In this document: positions 1,263 through 13,394 of the stretch, one piece after another
Numbering within the stretch: position 1 is the stretch's first letter
Layout: the number at the start of each line of letters is the position of its first letter
Assembly: GCA_024672315.1 (NCBI GenBank)
Contig: GCA_024672315.1_4714.1
DNA length: 64,000 nucleotides
Direction: 5' to 3' (one strand)
Origin: a phage
Made by a program: the position numbers and the translations under genes
Notes under the pieces: model-generated
Told to the model about the DNA's origin: nothing
Databases searched by the model: none
Seen by the model: only the letters and a program-made list of their open reading frames with translations

Positions 1263-3875
1263 TTAAGCGTCCGGCGTAAAATCAAAAGGAATGTCCGTAC
1301 GAATGATATCATAACGTTTTCCGAGGAAATAAAACTCTTCGGGAACCTGGCCTGGAATGATGCTATCACCGATGAACTGCGGATACGCCCAGATGTACTG
1401 AGTGAGTCCTTCGAACATATCCAGGTTATTTGCGTGGTTACCCATGATACGTTTCCAGAGTTCGCGTTTATACGGCGTTTTAACATCGAACCCATAAAGC
1501 GGTGCAAGATCTTCACCAGGAACAAATCCCAGGTAATAGTGGATCTGACTAACCGGGAAACCAAGCGTATCTCGCGGAATGGTGATCGCTTGCTCAGCCT
1601 TGGTGACATGCGTCTCAATAATCCAGTCATAGCACTCCGAATAGAACCGATCGAATTTCTCTGGATTATACCATGCTTTGGGAAGATTGAGTTTCTCCGT
1701 GAACGCATTCGACATGATCGTCGGTAAGAACGGAAGAATACCGGTTTTGATCTGCGTGTATTTCGATTTTACCCGGTTAACGAGATTCCAGCAACTGTAT
1801 CCTAATTGGTCGTTACAAAACTCAACGTAGAGATCGTAGTCACCGCCGGATAATGGGTTGTTGATGTCACCGATGTCTGCGGCATATTTGTTGGGATATC
1901 GGTTATTGAAAGCCAGTTTGGTTTGGTAATCGTAGATACACGGTTTGTTGTTCGCTGTATTGATCCACCACCAAGGTTCACCTACCTGCACACAAATGTC
2001 CTGGACATGAGGGTAGATGATATCAGCAAATGCGGTTAACACATCCCCTAACCACGCCATCGCCTGTTGGTTACACGGAGACAACAACCAAGACGGTGGC
2101 GTATATCCGGTTGCTGCGATGTTTCCTTCCCAATCCTGCTGCGCCCATTCGAACGGGCATGCGGTACTCATCAATTCGTAACTTAAACTGATAGTGACAG
2201 AGAAATGGTGTTTTGCAGCATATGCAGCGAAAGCTTCATGCCACGCGATACAGGGCGGATTTAATACATCCGTGGTGTTCACCAGTAACTTACCCGCACT
2301 TGGTGTCCAGACAGTATCGTAGAAATGCGACATGCCAACATAATGCACTAATTCATCCTGATATCCCGCATAAACCAGGTTCTCAAATACACGCTCCGGC
2401 GTGATGTTGTAATGGTCATCATAAGCGGTTATCGCACGAAGTTCGTGTGGCGTACAGTGGTGGCGATTAACCGTCATTTCCTGATACACCCCATCGATAG
2501 GAAGAATCTCGATGGTTAAGCCGAGGTCGATCGGTGTTTCCAGATAGGTCGTTTCAGTCGCATCTTCCTTATAATGTCGAGAACTCATGCTGAACATCAA
2601 CGACGTTACCGATTCGAGTTCGATAGGTTCGTCAGCATAGAACCCCGCCATTGCGTCGTTGAAATCGATCGTTACGATTGCGCTTCTACCGTCTTCAGAG
2701 ACATCTGTCGCATATCGGGTTAATGAGATATACTGACGGCTATCGTCTTTGTGTACAACGGTTAAAACCGGCGGGTGTTCGGTATCTGCAAAGTTACGCT
2801 GATCGCCAGTAAACGTGATCTTCGCTTTAAAGATCAAACCAAGCAACGACGTCATGGGATCATACGCAATACAGCCGTGATCCAGCGTATCCGTTGTCCG
2901 CCATTCTATCCCGACCAACCCGTTAGCGGTATGGCATCGCATATACGCATTAAGTACCATGTCTTCACTGACAACCGCGAAGTTCTCTGTTGACTGACCG
3001 TTGATAATCCAATACATCGGCTGCCAGAGGTTACGCGTACCTTTTGCGTAGCGGTAGGTTGGTGCGCCTTTAGGGTTGCCGTTATTGAGATGGAATACGG
3101 CAGTACCTTGATAATGGTCGTTCGTATTAATCGGAACACTGTAAGCATCACCGAGGTCCGTACGTTCCACCTTCGTGATTGTTGCGTTTTCAAATAACCT
3201 ACGTAGCGCGGGTAAACCGATATCTTCAGGCGCGTTTTCTCGACGAATCGCATCCGCGATGCGGTGGGCTAAGGCGGGGTAAATGACTTCACCCTGTTGT
3301 AGGTTTGCAAGACCTACAAAGCGATCGGGGCCGATACCAGCAATCAATAACTCGACACCACCCTTCGTTCTATCGTCGTTAAGATATTTCAGTCCGGTAA
3401 GGTCAAGATGCTGAATAAGCGACAACAGGTTGTAATTACGGTTCTCAACAGTTAGTACAAGATCGCCCGCCCAAACCAAACTTCCCTCATCCGCTGTTAC
3501 TTTAACGGATTGTCGGCCTGTTGTAGACGTTGTTGTCGTTTTATTTAATTGTCCTTGTAGGAAGTCGGTTGCGAGGTCAAAGGCAATACCGTAACGGTCA
3601 GCGACCGCTTGCATGATTTCACGTAACTGGGTATCTTCTTCAATGATAATCTTGACAGGTATTCCCAAGAACGCTTTAGCAAGGTCTCGTTTAACCAACG
3701 AGACGAATACGGATTTGTAGTATCGGCTTCCATCTTTCCCTTTAAAAAGAATGGAGGTTGTTTCGGGTGCCGATAGAACACGTGCAAATACAACATCGTC
3801 GGAAGTAAGAGAAAGTCCGTTTTTCTCGTTGACCAATCTTAGTATTTCATTTTGCGCGGTTTCATGTAACTTCAT
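1263..3875 (-). CDS. tail fiber/tailspike protein (870 aa) with conserved N-terminal fiber domain and large enzyme-like C-terminal region
   Basis: N-terminus shares motif SLVKRDLAKAFLGIPVKIIIE with ORFs 9064-9591, 13408-14238 and 49364-50815; long aromatic-rich ORF. Confidence 0.65.
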   Translation of the reverse strand: MKLHETAQNEILRLVNEKNGLSLTSDDVVFARVLSAPETTSILFKGKDGSRYYKSVFVSLVKRDLAKAFLGIPVKIIIEEDTQLREIMQAVADRYGIAFDLATDFLQGQLNKTTTTSTTGRQSVKVTADEGSLVWAGDLVLTVENRNYNLLSLIQHLDLTGLKYLNDDRTKGGVELLIAGIGPDRFVGLANLQQGEVIYPALAHRIADAIRRENAPEDIGLPALRRLFENATITKVERTDLGDAYSVPINTNDHYQGTAVFHLNNGNPKGAPTYRYAKGTRNLWQPMYWIINGQSTENFAVVSEDMVLNAYMRCHTANGLVGIEWRTTDTLDHGCIAYDPMTSLLGLIFKAKITFTGDQRNFADTEHPPVLTVVHKDDSRQYISLTRYATDVSEDGRSAIVTIDFNDAMAGFYADEPIELESVTSLMFSMSSRHYKEDATETTYLETPIDLGLTIEILPIDGVYQEMTVNRHHCTPHELRAITAYDDHYNITPERVFENLVYAGYQDELVHYVGMSHFYDTVWTPSAGKLLVNTTDVLNPPCIAWHEAFAAYAAKHHFSVTISLSYELMSTACPFEWAQQDWEGNIAATGYTPPSWLLSPCNQQAMAWLGDVLTAFADIIYPHVQDICVQVGEPWWWINTANNKPCIYDYQTKLAFNNRYPNKYAADIGDINNPLSGGDYDLYVEFCNDQLGYSCWNLVNRVKSKYTQIKTGILPFLPTIMSNAFTEKLNLPKAWYNPEKFDRFYSECYDWIIETHVTKAEQAITIPRDTLGFPVSQIHYYLGFVPGEDLAPLYGFDVKTPYKRELWKRIMGNHANNLDMFEGLTQYIWAYPQFIGDSIIPGQVPEEFYFLGKRYDIIRTDIPFDFTPDA

Positions 3876-3897: not shown

Positions 3898-4539
3898 TTA
3901 GATGTACTGCTTACCGCCCACGAAGGAAGTTAACCAGTTCCCGCTGACGAGTTGTGATACCCAGCCTGGAACGGCTCTACCATTCTGGCTCATGATGTTA
4001 CCACACCAACCAGGGAATCCGGGACGGATGTAATAGAAAGTTAAATTGTAGAGATGACAGTTCCATACCGCAACGTTATGTTTACCAGAAACCGCTTTAA
4101 AGACAAACGCGACAGGTAAAGGAGACGATAACAATTCGGTCACAGGGACGGCTGACCAGTTCGCATTCGCGTTCCACGGCTGCCAGGTATGACTACGCGA
4201 GTCGCAATATACGTTACCGTTGTTACCGCGCCCACCCGCATGCCACCACAGCGACGGACTCATGTTCTTAAGTGAGGTAAATTGTTGCGGTGGAATATTA
4301 GGAATAATAACAGGGTTGGTACCTTGTCCATGTTTCTTTTCTTTTGCGTTCACATACCCGCTTATCGATTCGAGGTATTTGGTACCAGGATAATTGTTCT
4401 GGACTTGTGTCGCAATATCACGAACGTCGAACGTCCAGCAGATCATGGTGTTATAGTAAGCGTCGGTGTTATCGTGCCATGAGTTACCATCTTGTAAACG
4501 TGCGCCGCTATTCGGTGTTTTATCTGTACTTATAGCCAT
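3898..4539 (-). CDS. hypothetical protein (213 aa), Gly/Trp/Asn-rich, possibly virion-associated
   Basis: ORF between tailspike and lipoprotein genes; 139-nt leader contains palindrome GTGAAC-N6-GTTCAC. Confidence 0.45.
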   Translation of the reverse strand: MAISTDKTPNSGARLQDGNSWHDNTDAYYNTMICWTFDVRDIATQVQNNYPGTKYLESISGYVNAKEKKHGQGTNPVIIPNIPPQQFTSLKNMSPSLWWHAGGRGNNGNVYCDSRSHTWQPWNANANWSAVPVTELLSSPLPVAFVFKAVSGKHNVAVWNCHLYNLTFYYIRPGFPGWCGNIMSQNGRAVPGWVSQLVSGNWLTSFVGGKQYI

Positions 4540-4678
4540 GGTCTTGTCCTATACGTTGGTGGTTGAGGTGACGGATATCGGATGCGTGCTGGACGTGAAC
4601 CCTATAGTTCACGCTATCGCCATTTTCTACCTCGTTTCTATTCTCAAAAAGGAAATTTCATACGATGACGCCATAGCA

Positions 4679-4708
4679 GCTCCTCCTTCCCTGACGGGTT
4701 GGAGGAGC
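4679..4708 (-). terminator. hairpin downstream of lipoprotein gene
   Basis: gctcctcc-N14-ggaggagc; followed on minus strand by TGCTATGG. Confidence 0.5.
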
Positions 4709-4716
4709 ATACTTAA

Positions 4717-5223
4717 TTACTTACTGATAACCTCAACGGAGTTGGGATCAGCGATCAATGCACGGTCGGTAGAACAATTGAAGAAGACCATCCCAACACC
4801 ATCGCCGTTCGAGTTCAGGGTTGAACTTGCGTAAGACAATGTTGGTTTGTTCATGCGGTAGAAGCGTTCGCTGGTTGCGGTATTGAACCCCAGGTCAACG
4901 TAGTCTTTCACCGTGGTATACAACTGGGTGGACTCGAAAACGGTTACCGGAGAGTCAACGGTAAACTGACTGCCTTCATCCACAACCAGAACTTTATCGT
5001 TCCAGATTTCAGTGGTTGAGAACTTCGGTTTCCAATGTTCGAATTCCTGGGTTGCGCCCCAGCAAGAATACACAGCGAGATTGCTGTTCTTCTCAACAGG
5101 TTTCAAACCCACCAGTTGCGTCAGGTCTTTATCCAGGTTCGGTAAACCTTCCAGCGTAGCACACCCACCCAGAGAAAGCACCATCAACATACCAAGAACG
5201 ATCGCGCAAAGTTTCTTCATCAT
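4717..5223 (-). CDS. putative lipoprotein (168 aa)
   Basis: N-terminus MMKKLCAIVLGMLMVLSLGGC: signal peptide with lipobox-like LGGC; embedded in tail fiber cluster. Confidence 0.6.
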   Translation of the reverse strand: MMKKLCAIVLGMLMVLSLGGCATLEGLPNLDKDLTQLVGLKPVEKNSNLAVYSCWGATQEFEHWKPKFSTTEIWNDKVLVVDEGSQFTVDSPVTVFESTQLYTTVKDYVDLGFNTATSERFYRMNKPTLSYASSTLNSNGDGVGMVFFNCSTDRALIADPNSVEVISK

Positions 5224-5277
5224 CGGATTTCCTTATGTGTTAACGGAAGTGATTTCCATAAGAATAATCGTCCGATG

Positions 5278-8200
5278 TTAATATCCCTGGTTTGTAGCTC
5301 CTGCTGTACCTGCGAACTTCAGCCATTGCCCTTCCGGCGACAATGCGCTCCGATAATGATACACTACAATCATATTTGTCAAACCGCTATAATCTGCTTT
5401 ATGTTGCGTAGTAATACGTATCGTATAATCCAACCCGTTAGGGAAGTTGAATACTTCAATGATCGTACCGGCGAGCTGGAGAGCACCGAACCCGGTGATT
5501 GTTCCTGTGCTTCCGGCGTTCATGCCCATCGCATCGCCGAATCCAATCCAGTAGCGTTTCCGAAACGCACCTTCGCTTTTCAGATAGTTGATGAAGTCAC
5601 TAAACGACATGTTCATACCACCAGATGAAAGCGTGGATGTTTTAATCGCCATGTTAGGGATATCGCTACTGGATGCTTTATATCCTAATTTCGTATCGAT
5701 TTCTGACTTCGTATACGTAGACAGATCCGCCGCAGTTAACGTGATATTCGCCGAACCATCGAACGCTTTCCCGTTGATCGTACGCGCAGTCCGCAACTTC
5801 GTTGCCGTTGCTGCGTTTCCTGAAGTATTCTGATTACCAGCGGTGTTGACACCTGGTAGGTTAATATTAGCGCTGCCGTCAAAAGACACTCCGCCTATTG
5901 TCCGGGCCGTCTTTAACTTGGTCGCTGTCGCCGCATTTCCTGTGGTATCTTGGTTACCTGTGGTATTAACACCAGGTAAGTTGATGTTTGCTGTACCGTT
6001 GAATGATACCCCACCTATCGTTCTTGCCGTTTGAAGCCTTGTCGCTGAAGCGGCATTACCCGTCGTGTTTTGGTTACCTGTTGCATTCACACCCGGGATA
6101 CTATCCTTAGATGTGTAAATCTGTGCCCATTCCGACCATTTCGCATCGGTTGTATCGCGACGTGAACGTAAATAAGCTGGAGCGTGCGCGCCCGAGGTAC
6201 CCGACCATCCAATGAGGATTTCACCTTCACCAACCGATGAAGCACCTTTAAGATGAACAATGTTACCGTAGGCTGTAGGGTATCCGTTATTGTACACTTC
6301 ATACATCTGAATACCCGTATTGCTGCCCTGGGTCGCATTAGCTAAAGCGGTGACCCGTCCCTTGGAAGCGAGCACGTTAATGCTAAAGCTAATATCAGTT
6401 GTACCGTCAAAGGCGACCCCATTAATCCTCCGCGCCGTTTGGAGTTTCGTGGCAGTAGCCGCATTACCAGAGGTACTCTGATTACCCGCTTTGTTCACAC
6501 CCGGTAAATCAATGTTGGCGGTCCCATCAAAGGACACACCCCCTATGGTTCTCGCCGTCCGAAGTTTTGTTGCTGAACCAGCGTTTCCGGAAGTGCTTTG
6601 ATTCCCCGACGCGTTGACACCCGGTAGGTTAATGCTCGCAGAACCATCAAAAGAAACTCCGCCGATCGTGATCGGTGTTTGCAGCTTCGTGGCTGTCGCA
6701 GCATTACCCGTCGTATTCTGATTGCCAACCGCATTAACGCCTGGTAATGCGATATCGGCCGTACCATCGAACGCAACACCACCGATTTTACGGGCGGTCT
6801 GTAGCTTGGTCGCTGTCGCCGCGTTGCCGCTGGTATTTTGCGTGCCCGCTTCATTTACGCCTGGTAAATCAATGTTCGCAGTACCGTCAAAAGAAACACC
6901 CCCGATGGTTCTCGCGGTCTGCAACTTCGTTGCACTTCCTGCGTTTCCGCTGGTGCTTTGATTTCCCGCTGCATTAACACCTGGTAGACTGATGCTGGCT
7001 GAACCATCGAAACTCACACCACCGATCGTAACAGCGGTTTTCAATTTCGTGGCGGTTGCTGCGTTACCGGTTGTATTTTGGTTGCCTGTCGCATTCACGC
7101 CAGGTAATGCAATATCCGCTGTTCCGTCAAAGGCAACGCCACCGATTTTACGTGCAGTTTGTAGCTTGGTTGCACTAGCAGCGTTACCGCTGGTATTCTG
7201 GGTGCCCGCTTTGTTAACACCGGGGAGATCGATGTTAGCAGAACCATCGAAGCTGACGCCACCTATCGTTCTTGCGGTAGCGAGTTTAGCTGCTGTGGCT
7301 GCATTATTACCCACTTTCAGCCAATCATCCCATGGACCATCCTGGCCGTTCCATGATGCCGTTAAACTACGTACGTAAATATTGCCGGTACGTACAGTGT
7401 AACGTTGCGTTCCACCGAATTGCCCGGTTGGGAGCACTTCAATGTAACCTGCGGCGTTTGCTTCAGGGAAATTGTGGGCGATGTCCGCGTTCGTTGTTAC
7501 TGGTTTAGACCAAATACCCACAGACGCTTCGACTGGGCCGAAGGTATTCAGATTTGCGTCTATCGCCATAGCGCCATTAAATTTCAGGTATGTCTCTGAC
7601 GATAACCCGATCGTTTTAGCAAACGCAGCTTTATCTACGATATCACTACCGTTATTCCCTGCTTGCAACGCCGTCTTAGCTGCCTTTATGGTTTCGGTCA
7701 ATCCAAGATACTGTAAGATCGCATCAACGCTTCCTTTGTTTAGCAGATTCAGACCTGTTGACGTTACGTTAGTTAGTCCGATTTGGTTCCGTCCAGTAAA
7801 ATAAGGGAGTTTATTCGCTTCTGTTGTTAGGTTAGACCACGCAGTCAACAACGCGTTCAAAGGCTGTTTACCCGCCAACGCATTGGTTACTGTCGTTGCG
7901 AAATTAGGATCGTTCCCTAAAGCTTGAGCCAGCTCATTAAGCGTATTTAGCGCTTCTGGAGACGAGTCGATCAGCGATGCGATAGCGCGCATCACAAATT
8001 CCGTGTTGGCAATCTGTCGACTGCTATCGTTCTCTGCAGCCGTAGGCGCTGCCGGGATACCGGTGAACACGGGGCTATTAAGATCTGCCTTGAGCGCGAT
8101 GAGACGTTTAAGTGCGTCGACATCGACTTTCAGGTTTTCCCACCCGATGAGAGAACCACCACTGCTGGCATGATAACGGTTATACCAGAAGTCACCGTTA

Positions 8201-9057
8201 ATGCCTAAAAAGAATATTCCCTTCTCTTCGTTTTGTGGGCCAGAACTGTTCCGTGACGAGCTGATGTAATTGATTTCAATAAGACCGGTAAACGTCACTC
8301 CTGGAATTATTTTATTGTCTCCAGCTGACTGTGATACCTGGTAAATCCCCGGGGTTGCGGCTTTAACCCATGTTAAGAATTCTGTTACTCCAGCGGTGCC
8401 GCTAAAATTCTTAACGTCGGTAAGTATTGCCCCATAACCGAACATACCGGGTAGAGCCACTCGTCCGCTGGTACGATCACGAATATCTGTTGCAACAACA
8501 GGCAATTGTTTACGAACGGCATTAACCGCTTTAGGTGTAGCCGATTTTGTCTCGTCGTCGCTATCGGTTGCATTACTTAGAATAGTTAAACCGCGCGTAG
8601 CAGTCGTTGCATCAGGAAGAAATGCGTTATCCAACACCTTAAGCTGTACTGCACTCGTATTACTAACAACGACATGCACTTGACAGTTAAGAACGCTGGT
8701 TGCGCCTTCGGCAGGCGTAGGCTTATATCTTTCTGGTGCACTGCAGACGGCAATCAGAACACCTTGGTCATCATACAGACCGATCTCACGTACCCAGAAC
8801 CCACCTTGACCAGCAGGAATAATACCCTCAACGATAATCCTGGTTGTGCTGTCACCATCCGCATGGATATTAGAAACTTCCCCACGATAAACTTCGTGAA
8901 CAAGCGCTGTTTGGCTGGCGGTCGGAGTTGGGATCGAGCCGTTACCATCACCAACGGCAAAGTGTGTGATTTTTAGTTTCTCACCGTCGGGAAGTAACGC
9001 GGCGGTGATACGTTCTGCTCCTTTATCGGTAACTACCGTTATATATGCTGTACTCAT
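5278..9057 (-). CDS. tail fiber protein (1259 aa), P2 gpH-like N-terminal domain plus tandem fiber repeats
   Basis: N-terminus ITVVTDKGAERITAALLPDGEKLKITHFAVGDGNG...GGFWVREIGLYDDQGVLIAV matches the conserved N-domain of P2 gpH/Stf-type fibers; more than ten ~45-aa repeats of type GGVSFDGSANIDLPGVNxAGNQNTSGNAATATKLQTAR. Confidence 0.8.
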   Translation of the reverse strand: MSTAYITVVTDKGAERITAALLPDGEKLKITHFAVGDGNGSIPTPTASQTALVHEVYRGEVSNIHADGDSTTRIIVEGIIPAGQGGFWVREIGLYDDQGVLIAVCSAPERYKPTPAEGATSVLNCQVHVVVSNTSAVQLKVLDNAFLPDATTATRGLTILSNATDSDDETKSATPKAVNAVRKQLPVVATDIRDRTSGRVALPGMFGYGAILTDVKNFSGTAGVTEFLTWVKAATPGIYQVSQSAGDNKIIPGVTFTGLIEINYISSSRNSSGPQNEEKGIFFLGINGDFWYNRYHASSGGSLIGWENLKVDVDALKRLIALKADLNSPVFTGIPAAPTAAENDSSRQIANTEFVMRAIASLIDSSPEALNTLNELAQALGNDPNFATTVTNALAGKQPLNALLTAWSNLTTEANKLPYFTGRNQIGLTNVTSTGLNLLNKGSVDAILQYLGLTETIKAAKTALQAGNNGSDIVDKAAFAKTIGLSSETYLKFNGAMAIDANLNTFGPVEASVGIWSKPVTTNADIAHNFPEANAAGYIEVLPTGQFGGTQRYTVRTGNIYVRSLTASWNGQDGPWDDWLKVGNNAATAAKLATARTIGGVSFDGSANIDLPGVNKAGTQNTSGNAASATKLQTARKIGGVAFDGTADIALPGVNATGNQNTTGNAATATKLKTAVTIGGVSFDGSASISLPGVNAAGNQSTSGNAGSATKLQTARTIGGVSFDGTANIDLPGVNEAGTQNTSGNAATATKLQTARKIGGVAFDGTADIALPGVNAVGNQNTTGNAATATKLQTPITIGGVSFDGSASINLPGVNASGNQSTSGNAGSATKLRTARTIGGVSFDGTANIDLPGVNKAGNQSTSGNAATATKLQTARRINGVAFDGTTDISFSINVLASKGRVTALANATQGSNTGIQMYEVYNNGYPTAYGNIVHLKGASSVGEGEILIGWSGTSGAHAPAYLRSRRDTTDAKWSEWAQIYTSKDSIPGVNATGNQNTTGNAASATRLQTARTIGGVSFNGTANINLPGVNTTGNQDTTGNAATATKLKTARTIGGVSFDGSANINLPGVNTAGNQNTSGNAATATKLRTARTINGKAFDGSANITLTAADLSTYTKSEIDTKLGYKASSSDIPNMAIKTSTLSSGGMNMSFSDFINYLKSEGAFRKRYWIGFGDAMGMNAGSTGTITGFGALQLAGTIIEVFNFPNGLDYTIRITTQHKADYSGLTNMIVVYHYRSALSPEGQWLKFAGTAGATNQGY
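5610..7290 (-). repeat. in-frame tandem coding repeats (~135 bp period) inside tail fiber gene, interrupted by a non-repeat segment
   Basis: Near-identical DNA units visible (e.g. gttaacacctggtaggttaat...gccgtc recurring); boundaries approximate. Confidence 0.7.
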
Positions 9058-9063
9058 GTTGTT

Positions 9064-9591
9064 TTATCCTGGATAAATAGTGATGATATCACCAATGACG
9101 GTTGTGGCACCGGCGTAAAGATGAGCCGGAGATACATCGTGTTGGTTTGTCACAGTAAGATCCAATCGACCACGCCAAACCATGGAGGTATTCGCGATGG
9201 GGATAGAAATCTTTTTGGATATATCGTCACGAAAATCAATAACAGTGGCAAGGGTAACTGCATCAAAATCAACGTCGGGATCAAAGACGAACCCGTATTG
9301 ATCTGAAATCGCCCGAATAATCGCATGTATAGTTGTTGTCTCAACGGACTCTAAAACGATTTTTACCGGTATTCCTAAAAATGCCTTCGCGATATCGCGT
9401 CGAGCGTAAACGATAAAACTTTCACCGCACCACTTTGTTCCTTCATTTGCTGTGACGATCACTTTTGCCCTGTTAGCACCAGAACTCCCATCCAAGGTTA
9501 ATGTAAGATCGGAGCTGCTGAACACGCTACCGTTACGTTGGTTTATCAACGTAATCAGTTCGTCTTTCCATGGCGGGTAAAGTGAACGCAT
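9064..9591 (-). CDS. short fiber N-domain paralog (175 aa), encoded immediately upstream of the 1259-aa fiber
   Basis: Contains IVYARRDIAKAFLGIPVKIVLE motif shared with 870-aa, 276-aa and 483-aa proteins; 7-nt gap to next gene. Confidence 0.6.
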   Translation of the reverse strand: MRSLYPPWKDELITLINQRNGSVFSSSDLTLTLDGSSGANRAKVIVTANEGTKWCGESFIVYARRDIAKAFLGIPVKIVLESVETTTIHAIIRAISDQYGFVFDPDVDFDAVTLATVIDFRDDISKKISIPIANTSMVWRGRLDLTVTNQHDVSPAHLYAGATTVIGDIITIYPG

Positions 9592-9797: not shown

Positions 9798-12700
9798 TTA
9801 AATGGTTGGTTTTACATCACGTAATAAGGCAATATAATAGCCTAATCCTCGGAGGATCTCCCCACTCCAGAAACCAAAATACATTCCGTCTCTGCCGAGA
9901 TTAGCGCTATCTGGTGCAGGACTCCACCCACCATTCATTACGTCGTCAACAGTGTAATGGTTGATGTAGTTCTCAACGATTTCGTTATAAGCATTAACCG
10001 CAACAGAATAGCCTTTATCGTTGGGATGTCCGTACAACATTGCTAACGACGCACCCGCCAACCATAATCCCGCCATGTGACCAGTAAAGTCATTAGGGAT
10101 AAAAGCAGGGGGTTTATCCATCGGAAAATCCGTAGGGGATTGATAAGCGTTTTCCTGTTGATACGTAAACAAGAAATCGATCCAATGACTGATGTAAGTG
10201 GTTAATTTCTCAGGGACAGCCAAACCATGATCAAGCAGTCCAGCATAAAGCCTCACCGCTGAGAAGAAAGCCCTCGGCTGATAACCGGACCATGCCGTCT
10301 GATCGCCGAAGTGGTACATCGTAAAATCGTTAACTTTTGATCCGCTTGGCGCATCCCAACGATCCCACACGTACGCACTTGCCCCTGGCCCTAAAACCCC
10401 GAATTTCTGATAATACCACTGTTGTGAGTCATACCAGAAATTCACAACGTTCTGAATCATGAGGTCACGTCGTTCAGTCGGTACTTCCATATCCAGGAAG
10501 ACCCATGGATGTTGGTAGCCGGGATAAGGCTGACCACGCCAACTGTCGAACGTCGGTGCGTTAGGGATATAGTTGTTCGAGAACGGAATAATACCAGGAG
10601 TATAAGGCAGTGGGTCAAGACGTTGGTTGACAATCGTGCAATCGCCAACACGTAATGTTCCCTCTGCCTCAAAGGTTGCTTTTAACGTAAACAACATGGT
10701 ATATCCGTCATCCGTGGTGTAAGTTGACGGTGGATTGTTGATGGCGTAAAGCTTAAATACCCCTTCAGCGATATCGCTGTCGTCAGGCAAGAACAGAATT
10801 TCAGTTGAGCCATCGCCCCACACAGGTGCAGAAGGTTTAGGGTCAGTATCAGCGTGGCCCGGTTGATACCCTGAAAGCGTCCATCCGTTCACCGAAAGCG
10901 TCAACGTATTTCTTGCCGTGGTGGCCGGTAGCATATACCACCATCGCCAACCATTTGCATCTTCTACACGAACGTTGTAGTCAATCGACGCGAAATAACT
11001 GACCTGTCTTACGATCTGTTTTGCTGTTGGATTGAATTCAAATTGCCCGCCTGCTGCAGTAAGCTGCGCTTTTAGGAACAACCCATCCCAGGAATCTTCC
11101 ACCGCTTCGCTGAATTCTGTTGTGATGGCGACATCATCTTTCCAGCCGACTTTATCAGCCGATATCAACACAGAACCTGTAACAACATCACCGGTTGGTG
11201 TTGAAGCTTCATCAACCGCATCGGCAGGAATCAACGAGCCTATTTTGAAATCCCATTCTTTCGGTTCAGCGCTGGAAGGTAGTACCAGTTTGTACGTTTT
11301 GGCGTTCGCTTCGGTTTTGTCCAAAGAAAGCGATAATGAGATCTCAACCGGAATTGCAACACCTGCTGTATCTTTACCTCCGCAGGTTACACGAAGAATT
11401 GAATCACGATTGACGCGGAACGGAATGGCCTGCTGCTCAAGGTAAATTTGTGCTGAAGATGCTTGAATCACGATCCAGCCATCGGTATCACGCGTGATTG
11501 TAAACGGTGCTTTCGATGGGTATGTATACGTGTAAGCGATACCGTCGGTGTCGTAACGATCGGTTCCTTTTACCTGACGGAAGAACTTATCATTGGCGTC
11601 GATACGGGTATATTCTTCAATCGTAAACAACGATGCCTTGTACGCTTTCTGATAACGCTCCTGCTGCGTTAAACGGTATAAGGTGTAGGCTGCTTCACAA
11701 AACCACTGTTCAGCGTCTGACGCGTTTCCCATGTAGTCTCTGGTGACCGGCACCTGGATCGGTCGGTTATGCTGACATTCGTTCGTTTTGATAAGGTATC
11801 CGCCATATTCAACAGGAACACGGGGTGCCCATGCAACCAAGTAAGAACCGTTGACGGATTTATCTTTGAGTACGATAGTACCTACTTCATCGTCAGTACA
11901 CGCTTCAAGATCGTCTCCGTCAGCACTTACGTAACGTTTTGTGCGTAACGCAACTTTCTCGATAGGGAACACCGTACCCTTTGTATCCCAGTCAATTGTC
12001 CCATCATCATTGGTTTTGAACACATCCGCGTTCAAATTCTGCCAGCCGAGTTTACCCTCATAGACCTGAACAACAAGATCCATGTATTCCCCGAACGTTG
12101 GCGCACCGTGTGTTATTTTTCCGATACCGTTGGTGAATGTAACCGCTGTGTCATGGAAACCGCCATGTGTTGGGTAATCGTCTTTTGCAAGAGGATAATG
12201 GGCCAACACAGGTTGTTTACCATTAACAATCCAGTTAGCGATCCAGCGTGCTGGTGTATCCGGTGGTTCAAGGCCTGCATAGAACGCATTTATATACGCA
12301 TCGAACGATGCCTCCGCTAATGTGAGATAATGCGCTTTAAGCTTGGTATCATCCGTTGTATGACTGAATATACCCGCACCCAGAATTAACAACGACTGTC
12401 CTTCTGTTGTTGCGTCACCGTCCGGTTGTGCTTCTTGTCGTGTTGCTGCAATGAAATGACGGTTGTTTACCATGACTCCGCTTTCATTTAACACGTAATG
12501 ATCGGTTTCTGGATCGGTAAACGTTCCTGTGTTTCGGGTTAAGAATCTTGCATGACCATAACCAACGAAATTAACCGGCGACGCCGTAAGCACCCATTTA
12601 CCGATAAGTTGAGCGACGTCATTATAACGCTCCGATGCGGTGATTTGTTTCACGTACCAATCTTTACGGTTAAATGTCCAGAGCAGGAAGTAATAGGTTG

Positions 12701-13394
12701 TATTGATTTCCATCACTGGGAACGTCGGCGTTAACGGCTCCAGCGTTAAGTAGTTGCTCCAATCAATCTGTCCACCAACCACCGATGGGGTAATCTCTAA
12801 TAACTGACACCATTCATAACGGTTCGGTACACTACCGGACGTTGTTGGTAAAGGTAACTTGTATACGCCAGTACGATTCAGATCGAACGCTTTTCTAGCC
12901 GATCCTAAATCAACATAAATACTCGATGATGCGCTTGCATCAGATGCCTCCAAAGCACCTAGCGTTGACCGATACATTGAGATGAACAACGTATCTTTCC
13001 AGTAAGGGTTATCCTCGGTTGGTTCTAAAGCGATTTGTGCGGAGATGCTGTTCCATGTCCCTAACTGGTATGCTGCATTTAAAGATTCTTCCGTGAAATA
13101 ACTTTCCGCAATCGCCAGATGGAACTGTTCATTCAATAACGCGAGTGCACTGCGACCGGTAACATCCTCGTTACCGGTTTCTTTTTTCATGATCGCGCCG
13201 AACGGAAACAGTGTCGCGAATGACCGTTTTGGTTTATTAACCGTAACCGTCCCCGTGTATTTTCCAACACCATCAAGTTTTTGACTATCGCCAACAGCAG
13301 TGACTGCGATACCATCAACCGGGATATCTGTTTTATTTAGTATATTGAGTTGGTCAACCAGATCCTGCTTATCGTCAGGTAAGAATGTCGCCAT
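9798..13394 (-). CDS. large virion/tailspike-like protein (1198 aa)
   Basis: Very long ORF in fiber cluster, aromatic-rich, preceded by a fiber N-domain paralog gene; function not assignable from sequence. Confidence 0.55.
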   Translation of the reverse strand: MATFLPDDKQDLVDQLNILNKTDIPVDGIAVTAVGDSQKLDGVGKYTGTVTVNKPKRSFATLFPFGAIMKKETGNEDVTGRSALALLNEQFHLAIAESYFTEESLNAAYQLGTWNSISAQIALEPTEDNPYWKDTLFISMYRSTLGALEASDASASSSIYVDLGSARKAFDLNRTGVYKLPLPTTSGSVPNRYEWCQLLEITPSVVGGQIDWSNYLTLEPLTPTFPVMEINTTYYFLLWTFNRKDWYVKQITASERYNDVAQLIGKWVLTASPVNFVGYGHARFLTRNTGTFTDPETDHYVLNESGVMVNNRHFIAATRQEAQPDGDATTEGQSLLILGAGIFSHTTDDTKLKAHYLTLAEASFDAYINAFYAGLEPPDTPARWIANWIVNGKQPVLAHYPLAKDDYPTHGGFHDTAVTFTNGIGKITHGAPTFGEYMDLVVQVYEGKLGWQNLNADVFKTNDDGTIDWDTKGTVFPIEKVALRTKRYVSADGDDLEACTDDEVGTIVLKDKSVNGSYLVAWAPRVPVEYGGYLIKTNECQHNRPIQVPVTRDYMGNASDAEQWFCEAAYTLYRLTQQERYQKAYKASLFTIEEYTRIDANDKFFRQVKGTDRYDTDGIAYTYTYPSKAPFTITRDTDGWIVIQASSAQIYLEQQAIPFRVNRDSILRVTCGGKDTAGVAIPVEISLSLSLDKTEANAKTYKLVLPSSAEPKEWDFKIGSLIPADAVDEASTPTGDVVTGSVLISADKVGWKDDVAITTEFSEAVEDSWDGLFLKAQLTAAGGQFEFNPTAKQIVRQVSYFASIDYNVRVEDANGWRWWYMLPATTARNTLTLSVNGWTLSGYQPGHADTDPKPSAPVWGDGSTEILFLPDDSDIAEGVFKLYAINNPPSTYTTDDGYTMLFTLKATFEAEGTLRVGDCTIVNQRLDPLPYTPGIIPFSNNYIPNAPTFDSWRGQPYPGYQHPWVFLDMEVPTERRDLMIQNVVNFWYDSQQWYYQKFGVLGPGASAYVWDRWDAPSGSKVNDFTMYHFGDQTAWSGYQPRAFFSAVRLYAGLLDHGLAVPEKLTTYISHWIDFLFTYQQENAYQSPTDFPMDKPPAFIPNDFTGHMAGLWLAGASLAMLYGHPNDKGYSVAVNAYNEIVENYINHYTVDDVMNGGWSPAPDSANLGRDGMYFGFWSGEILRGLGYYIALLRDVKPTI

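Follow-up and report, generated by a model that had tools for sequence, protein, structure and literature searches.

Superinfection-exclusion lipoproteins of phages are encoded next to receptor-binding genes and work from the outer membrane's periplasmic side. One of them, Llp of phage T5, is an outer-membrane lipoprotein that faces the periplasm; its gene lies downstream of a receptor-binding gene, and a disulfide ties the termini of the protein together (PMC9586334). In this work we consider a gene for a 168-amino acid lipoprotein precursor that occupies positions 4717-5223 on the minus strand (stop codon at 4717-4719) of a 64,000-nucleotide stretch of phage DNA, referred to below as the window (GenBank assembly GCA_024672315.1, contig GCA_024672315.1_4714.1). 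The DNA of this region is 95.5-95.8% identical to that of Goslar, a nucleus-forming jumbo phage (chimallivirus) of Escherichia coli, and in that phage the orthologous gene is gp88 (Goslar_00088, HOV27_gp088). In kind it is familiar, a phage outer-membrane lipoprotein kept beside receptor-binding genes. What is new is the family, which is unrelated to Llp and Cor in sequence and fold, is larger, is expressed late and shows no coupling to the variable receptor-binding modules around it.

The lipoprotein has several features in common with T5 Llp and the Cor proteins of T1, phi80 and N15. All are phage outer-membrane lipoproteins with the lipid on the first mature cysteine (a prediction in the present case), all are encoded adjacent to and downstream of a receptor-binding gene, and all have an intramolecular pair of cysteines near the ends of the folded part, for which a disulfide is predicted here. 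No sequence or fold similarity to Llp or Cor was detected. Mature Llp has 61 amino acids, whereas the mature protein described here has 148 (about 2.4 times as many), made up of a tether of ~25 amino acids and a barrel of ~105. Llp is made early in T5 infection, whereas Goslar gp88 is late and dependent on the phage nucleus. The cor genes of the T1 type are located in tail-gene clusters, and early expression is thus a feature of Llp alone. Finally, and unlike its counterparts, the lipoprotein does not co-vary with the neighbouring receptor-binding module.

TraT of the F plasmid offers another comparison. This outer-membrane lipoprotein, present in high copy, shuts out incoming DNA donors and reportedly interferes with OmpA-dependent processes. 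Stoichiometric masking of the TraT kind would fit the abundance of gp88, but TraT differs in size and predicted fold and is borne by a plasmid rather than a phage. Neither the TraT family (PF05818) nor the Pfam model for lambda Bor matched any of the 27 family members assembled here.

The lipoprotein and its family

The lipoprotein pathway runs through Sec, Lgt, LspA, Lnt and Lol, with a +2 rule under which, in Enterobacteria, residues other than Asp go with sorting to the outer membrane and alanine is the default. The precursor begins MMKKLCAIVLGMLMVLSLGGCATLEG, and its N terminus (MMKKLCAIVLGMLMVLSLGG-C21) comprises a signal peptide of residues 1-20 (5164-5223) with an n-region, MMKK, that contributes K3 and K4, an uncharged h-region of 14 residues (LCAIVLGMLMVLSL) and an L-G-G-C lipobox (L18-G19-G20 and the cysteine), with alanine at +2. 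The codon of Cys21, the predicted acylated first residue of the mature protein, is TGT at 5161-5163. A PROSITE-type rule (positively charged n-region, uncharged hydrophobic h-region, lipobox [LVI][ASTVI][GAS]C and cysteine at position 15-35) selected this open reading frame (ORF) alone from 534 Met-initiated ORFs of at least 60 amino acids in the six frames of the window, and the same rule is passed by all 27 homologues. G20 and C21 are invariant in these sequences, and residue +2 is A, S, K, Q, T or V, in no case Asp. The signal peptide and lipobox-like LGGC that the original prediction had assigned to this 168-residue protein are confirmed. A looser lipobox scan of the entire 237-kb Goslar genome, with alternative starts allowed and many short antisense false positives dropped because of poor h-regions and lack of annotation, left gp88 as the sole convincing lipoprotein coding sequence. 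That the gene encodes a lipoprotein precursor of the Sec/Lgt/LspA type is strongly supported by these sequence features; cleavage is predicted between G20 and C21, and an acylated Cys21 followed by alanine should direct the protein via Lol to the outer membrane.

The remainder of the protein was modelled with AlphaFold2 (mean predicted local distance difference test score, pLDDT, 75; predicted template modelling score, pTM, 0.67). A signal helix at residues 4-17 is followed by a flexible tether at residues 22-47 (5083-5160; pLDDT 50-68, with a single four-residue helix) and an all-β, barrel-like domain of 10 strands at residues 48-151 (4771-5082; pLDDT 82-92). Twelve columns are invariant in the alignment of 27 sequences, including G20, C21, C54 (5062-5064) and C150 (4774-4776). 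Because C54 lies in the first strand of the model and C150 in the last, a disulfide that closes the barrel is likely, and it would suit the oxidizing environment of the periplasm. The mature protein is acidic (148 amino acids, pI 4.6), contains 4.1% proline and has a hydrophilic C terminus (...ADPNSVEVISK). The barrel model gave no match below E 0.008 when compared with the Protein Data Bank (PDB) by Foldseek, and a profile search of the PDB gave none. The viral structure library BFVD returned the family itself and weak matches to phage 'lipoproteins' of DIBBI, Possum, Joad and PNJ1809-36.

The lipoprotein is 99.4% identical in amino acid sequence to Goslar_00088. Word-indexed searches found six close relatives at first and 26 clusters after a profile search, and tblastn located homologues of 25-35% identity in 55 phage records, all of them enterobacterial jumbo phages (SPN3US-like phages of Salmonella, E. 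coli and Proteus, and Machina-, Wellington- and Asesino-type phages of Erwinia). A hidden Markov model scan of 1.84 billion representative proteins gave 18 clusters at E ≤ 1e-3, seven of them below 1e-30, but several of the 18 are fragments or repeats and they added little to the family. No bacterial homologue was found in these searches, which argues that the protein is not a captured host lipoprotein of known family. The family is tiny, restricted to phages and confined to enterobacterial jumbo phages of the Goslar-, SPN3US- and Erwinia-like groups. Pfam, NCBIfam and PADLOC contain no family for it, and the match in PHROGs is to the unannotated phrog_9559 (1.4e-21). The label 'DUF2846' that GenBank attaches to the homologue of phage pEa_SNUABM_43 (MW384823, 134200-134730) was rejected, PF11008 matching 0 of 27 members at E ≤ 1. 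A search of the literature on SPN3US gp159, jumbo-phage lipoproteins and superinfection exclusion by chimalliviruses found nothing on this protein, and the BASEL and CRISPRi-ART papers held nothing relevant to it.

Three metagenomic Goslar-like contigs, L007, L008 and L009, carry more distant orthologues. The ratio of nonsynonymous to synonymous substitution rates (dN/dS) is 0.018 against Goslar, 0.076 against L009 and 0.19 against L008, values that indicate strong purifying selection. With the published RNA-seq and 20 peptides for the Goslar orthologue, they identify 4717-5223 as a genuine gene.

Genomic setting, timing and a possible role in exclusion

Directly upstream of the lipoprotein gene is that of a 1259-amino acid tail fibre (5278-9057, minus strand; Phage_tail_fib, 1.8e-41; Pfam PF12571 and PF03406). 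Downstream, beyond gp87 (3898-4539, minus strand), lies the orthologue of gp86, a host-recognition-type protein with DUF7941 and a TIM barrel (1263-3875, minus strand; PF25613, 1.7e-41; PF23845, 3.8e-85). The location of the gene among fibre genes, remarked on when the window was first inspected, is borne out by these assignments. It also extends to relatives. The lipoprotein gene is co-directional with, and inside, the variable host-recognition cluster in L007-L009: in L009 the order is DUF7941+DUF285, DUF7941, a 1024-amino acid fibre, DUF4376 and the lipoprotein; in L008 it is flanked by two DUF7941 proteins; and in L007 it lies between homologues of gp92 and of gp85/gp84. In SPN3US, Kwan and ChrisDB it forms a divergently oriented unit of its own, again abutting DUF7941 genes (SPN3US gp160, gp154 and gp155; Kwan gp172; ChrisDB gp175-177), and in the SPN3US-like phages it is also close to GH108 endolysin and DUF1353 genes. 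In SPN3US gp155 (JN641803, 133169-135346), a DUF7941 module is combined with the adhesin domain of T-even Gp38 (PF05268, 7e-18), and the protein, judged by its domains, is likely a receptor-binding protein. The conserved feature is thus adjacency to DUF7941/fibre host-recognition genes, in every clade examined. It is strongly supported that the lipoprotein gene belongs to the fixed backbone of the DUF7941/fibre cluster in nucleus-forming jumbo phages of enterobacteria.

By blastn, the window and Goslar are collinear up to 5260, after which the C-terminal third of the fibre (5261-6553) differs, retaining repeat-level similarity to the Goslar fibre only. The Goslar fibre-assembly chaperone of the Caudo_TAP family (Goslar_00089; MK327938, 98471-98887) has no counterpart in the window, and the recombination breakpoint is within the 54-nucleotide spacer between fibre and lipoprotein genes, just 5' of the lipoprotein start. 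In L009 the lipoprotein is 86% identical, compared with 64% for gp91 and 37% for gp87, and the fibre tips are unrelated; in L007 and L008 it is 49% identical, against 43-59% for gp85, gp84 and gp92. The lipoprotein is therefore as conserved as the surrounding backbone genes, or more so.

Timing is available from published RNA-seq of Goslar infection. At 30 min, reads for gp088 numbered 358, 426 and 425 in control cells and 6, 11 and 3 when the nuclear shell protein was knocked down (doi 10.1101/2023.09.20.558163, Supplementary Table 2). The corresponding log2 fold changes (-4.5, -3.6 and -6.0) place it in the same class as the capsid gene and the neighbours gp086-gp090, and by our arithmetic it has ~2-fold the reads per kb of its neighbours and about half as many as the capsid gene. 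The loss on knock-down and the high read density together indicate that gp88 is a late, strongly expressed gene.

The protein probably alters the envelope of the infected cell. We tentatively suggest, as the reading we favour among several, that gp88, made late and in abundance, acts as an outer-membrane lipoprotein to block self-adsorption or entry by way of a conserved component of the envelope; a role in exclusion or anti-readsorption is our leading guess. In essence, the producing cell's outer membrane would, late in infection, be loaded with acylated gp88, whose tethered barrel would neutralize a conserved and probably abundant envelope component that irreversible adsorption or tail penetration requires. 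Infected cells and lysis debris would then not use up progeny and late superinfecting relatives. The step targeted would be one that the whole phage group has in common rather than the receptor of the variable neighbouring fibre, with a function like that of Cor, Llp and TraT, and the gp88 found in 'virion' preparations would be carried over with fragments of outer membrane. This proposal is consistent with a lipoprotein signal that is invariant in 27 of 27 members, the second pair of cysteines, the late expression class, the high expression and the synteny in all clades, as well as with the host outer-membrane proteins in the Goslar sample and the absence of the homologue from SPN3US virion proteomes, both described below. 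An Llp/Cor-type role had been put forward for the gene at the outset, on the basis of its position and type. Both of these stand, since the protein is of the outer-membrane lipoprotein type and sits beside host-recognition genes in every clade, but a relation to Llp or Cor in sequence or fold does not.

A number of considerations weigh against this proposal. Neither in sequence nor in fold does gp88 resemble Llp, Cor, TraT or Bor. With the fibre tip swapped and the TAP gene missing relative to Goslar, the lipoprotein is still 99.4% identical, and it is under strong purifying selection rather than showing the variability of an arms race. The lack of co-variation with receptor-binding modules and the purifying selection make a conserved target an added assumption. 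Late expression leaves most of the infection cycle unprotected. Were all the detected gp88 membrane debris, its level in the outer membrane would have to be roughly that of OmpA. The proximity of the gene to peptidoglycan hydrolase genes in SPN3US-like phages would suit a lysis-related role as well.

Were exclusion or anti-readsorption to be the function, gp88 would give nucleus-forming jumbo phages their first described factor of this type, one with no relation to Llp or Cor and aimed at a step common to phages of E. coli, Salmonella and Erwinia. It would also provide a handle on the terminal receptor or penetration step of these candidates for phage therapy. As matters stand, gp88 is a defined candidate for knock-down and expression work, and knock-down tools for Goslar exist.

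Alternative functions

The first alternative to be weighed is that gp88 is a genuine virion-associated protein, present at several hundred copies on the DUF7941 filament cloud or on attached patches of membrane and acting at the next infection. According to the passages on gp88 in a recent preprint (Basu et al. 2026, doi 10.64898/2026.04.21.720040), it is one of 10 high-copy 'virion-associated' proteins without predicted function and ranks fourth in abundance among the unmodelled proteins of CsCl-purified Goslar virions; these passages make no mention of a lipoprotein signal. Table S4 of the preprint gives 20 peptides, 77.84% coverage, a mass of 18,411 Da and 491, 737 and 1158 copies per virion. 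This mass is that of Goslar_00088 (18,410.8 Da), which confirms that the two are the same protein. The precursor numbers 167 amino acids when counted from the second ATG, where the Goslar annotation starts, and coverage of 130 residues fits residues 32-167. In the part of the peptide table examined, no peptide was found with residues 22-31, which would carry Cys21; the Cys21 peptide is the one mature-region tryptic peptide missing from that part. Copies per virion are far lower for the neighbours: 52 for gp89, 43 for the fibre gp90, 19 for gp87 and ~5 each for gp92, gp86 and gp85 (doi 10.64898/2026.04.21.720040), so that gp88 is detected at 17 times the level of the neighbouring fibre. The original prediction had named detection as a virion component as evidence against an exclusion role and, taken at face value, the ~740 copies of Goslar are such evidence. 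The gene is, moreover, among genes for DUF7941 proteins, whose products are also high-copy and unmodelled and, as described in parts of the preprint, are proposed to form a baseplate-anchored filament cloud (doi 10.64898/2026.04.21.720040). The RNA level of gp88 relative to the capsid gene is roughly proportional to its copy estimate.

The force of these numbers is weakened by what else the preparation contained. In the portion of the peptide data consulted, OmpC, OmpA and OmpF are represented by 29, 19 and 17 peptide rows, respectively, versus ~31 for the major capsid protein, and the area of one OmpA peptide is 879,000, compared with 529,000 for the top gp88 peptide; nucleus fragments and PhuZ filaments were likewise captured in the preparation, as its authors state (doi 10.64898/2026.04.21.720040). 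Host Lpp appears in the same part of the 'purified virion' table, and the peptide areas of these host proteins are on a par with those of high-copy phage proteins. When the areas of six OmpA peptides from this portion are scaled as the authors scale phage proteins, OmpA comes to at least ~300 copies per virion-equivalent, a rough estimate. According to the preprint passages, gp88 is absent from the cryo-EM atomic model and is not among the proteins tagged with GFP (doi 10.64898/2026.04.21.720040). The invariant lipobox implies export to, and acylation on, the periplasmic side by an established pathway, but virions are assembled in the cytoplasm. The SPN3US homologue gp159 (18.1 kDa) is not listed in the virion proteome tables of that phage, in which gp158 has 3 spectra and the adjacent DUF7941 protein gp160 (18.5 kDa), by contrast, 112-280. 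We therefore consider a virion protein unlikely. The lipoprotein signal and the co-purifying host outer-membrane proteins argue for a location of Goslar gp88 in the envelope, and one of the most abundant unassigned 'virion' proteins of Goslar moves from being 'packaged or injected, function unknown' to being an envelope protein of the infected cell. Outer-membrane carry-over is thereby flagged in Goslar virion proteomes, and copy numbers estimated from this dataset for membrane-associated phage proteins should be treated cautiously.

A function in lysis would place gp88 as an outer-membrane-disrupting partner, perhaps in Goslar-like phages as a replacement for the missing o-spanin beside an orphan i-spanin-like gene, Goslar_00247 (MK327938, 234664-235215, minus strand). 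The product of the latter has an N-terminal transmembrane segment and a long coiled coil, and no lipoprotein ORF was found beside or inside its gene. Like o-spanins of the Rz1 type, gp88 is a late phage outer-membrane lipoprotein, as predicted, and the only convincing one in Goslar. In SPN3US-like phages its gene is within ~2 kb of that for the GH108 endolysin, and in L007 it directly precedes the gene for the membrane protein gp85. O-spanins, however, have a short, proline-rich and largely unstructured periplasmic domain, whereas gp88 is modelled as a folded barrel, predicted to be stapled by a disulfide, with only 4% proline. No C-terminal transmembrane segment of the kind that defines a unimolecular spanin is present. 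Neither of its neighbours, the fibre and gp87, has an N-terminal transmembrane segment, so there is no adjacent i-spanin gene, and none is embedded; the Goslar endolysin gene gp24 is ~80 kb away. PHROGs and Pfam gave no spanin match for the lipoprotein, although PHROGs recognized a control, the overlapped Rz/Rz1 pair of Erwinia phage RAY, which our scan also recovered.

SPN3US-like and Erwinia phages, furthermore, possess a separate adjacent pair. In SPN3US (NC_027402, 180017-180976), ACQ60_gp062, which has a transmembrane segment with coiled-coil or proline-rich sequence, is followed by the lipoprotein ACQ60_gp061. Both belong to PHROGs of unknown function, and on architecture alone they are a candidate for an unannotated two-component spanin; Goslar_00247 is syntenic with this pair. 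Homologues of ACQ60_gp061 occur in 73 jumbo-phage records, including most genomes that carry the gp88 family. A spanin role for the family was accordingly rejected on grounds of architecture and of this co-occurrence, and we regard a lysis function of gp88 as rather improbable, though the rejection is less complete for Goslar-like phages. Were it the partner of Goslar_00247, an unusual lysis device would be defined. In RAY (KU886224, 16158-16932), the annotated gp14 is a truncated reading of a proline-rich lipoprotein ORF of 173 amino acids. This ORF and the 3' end of the Rz-like gp15 overlap, and the pair is close to DUF7941 genes of that phage.

It is improbable, too, that gp88 is a periplasmic inhibitor of peptidoglycan hydrolases, of the type of MliC, PliC or T4 Sp, that shields the late-infected cell from tail lysins of adsorbing phages or restrains the lysins of the phage itself. 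The modelled tether could reach the peptidoglycan layer, SPN3US gp159 is encoded between gp156, a GH108 endolysin, and gp158, a weak match to Peptidase_M15_3 (E 0.008, below the Pfam cut-off), and conservation independent of receptor-binding modules would suit a conserved enzyme as target. Set against this are the Foldseek result given above and the MliC family (PF09864), which matches 0 of 27 members at E ≤ 1. The model bears a weak resemblance to the eight-stranded MliC/PliC barrel, no better than that to unrelated barrels.

A variant of the virion-associated alternative would have acylated gp88, alone or on small patches of outer membrane, bind the DUF7941 filament cloud after lysis and travel with the virion at several hundred copies, aiding the next engagement with the envelope or the formation of the genome-receiving vesicle. 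We think this quite improbable; if it were true, a tailed phage particle would have acquired a lipoprotein outside the cytoplasm. A host-conversion 'moron' that benefits carrier-state hosts, for example by serum or stress resistance in the manner of lambda Bor, and is unrelated to adsorption is very improbable: phage carriage in cultures is suggested by the exact protein on contigs of isolate assemblies, and SPN3US-like phages keep the gene as its own divergently oriented unit, but these phages are obligately lytic, the gene needs the phage nucleus for its expression and follows the late structural genes, and there is no match to the Bor or TraT families. What probability remains belongs to an explanation that has so far not been considered.

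Local signals and neighbouring genes

A Shine-Dalgarno-like AAGGA (5230-5234, minus strand) precedes the first ATG of the lipoprotein gene by 6 nucleotides and sits within the 54-nucleotide spacer that follows the fibre stop codon. At the other end, a stable hairpin begins 4 nucleotides past the lipoprotein stop codon (4675-4713, minus strand), with an 8-bp GC-rich stem and a 3-bp inner stem (core stems 4679-4686 and 4701-4708). Its presence had been noted from the start and is upheld by a free energy of -25.4 kcal/mol (z -4.75), equalled by 0 of 200 shuffled sequences, and by an identical sequence in Goslar. It has no U-tract and a terminator scan gave no call, on which grounds a canonical intrinsic terminator was rejected; a transcript 3'-end or stabilizer is possible, and the ~2-fold read density of gp088 relative to its neighbours bears on this. 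The 177-nucleotide spacer between the lipoprotein gene and gp87 (4540-4716) contains two stable hairpins and is 99% identical to that of Goslar, compared with ~96% for the flanking coding DNA.

The host-recognition cluster continues upstream of the fibre on the minus strand with orthologues of gp91 (9064-9591; DUF7941 by Pfam) and gp92 (9798-13394), in synteny with L007 and L009. Within the fibre gene, tandem repeats of 120 and 360 nucleotides with 65-76% matches (6485-7251) encode units of the form GGVSFDG..N..LPGVN..GNQ.T.GNA..ATKL. The gp86 orthologue (1263-3875) combines DUF7941 with the N-domain and TIM barrel of the Pfam 'non-contractile tail sheath protein' (PF23844 and PF23845). Further downstream, gp85 (672-1241) has a soluble N-terminal part of ~95 amino acids, a long hydrophobic stretch at residues ~94-150 and a charged tail, and with gp84 (288-662) makes up a conserved pair, found immediately after the lipoprotein gene in L007.

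The exact lipoprotein sequence occurs on 104 contigs of ~236-259 kb in bacterial isolate assemblies labelled as E. coli, Salmonella (Enteritidis, Kentucky and Typhimurium) and Shigella flexneri. Goslar-like jumbo phages thus seem to accompany bacterial isolates, as a carrier state or as contamination.

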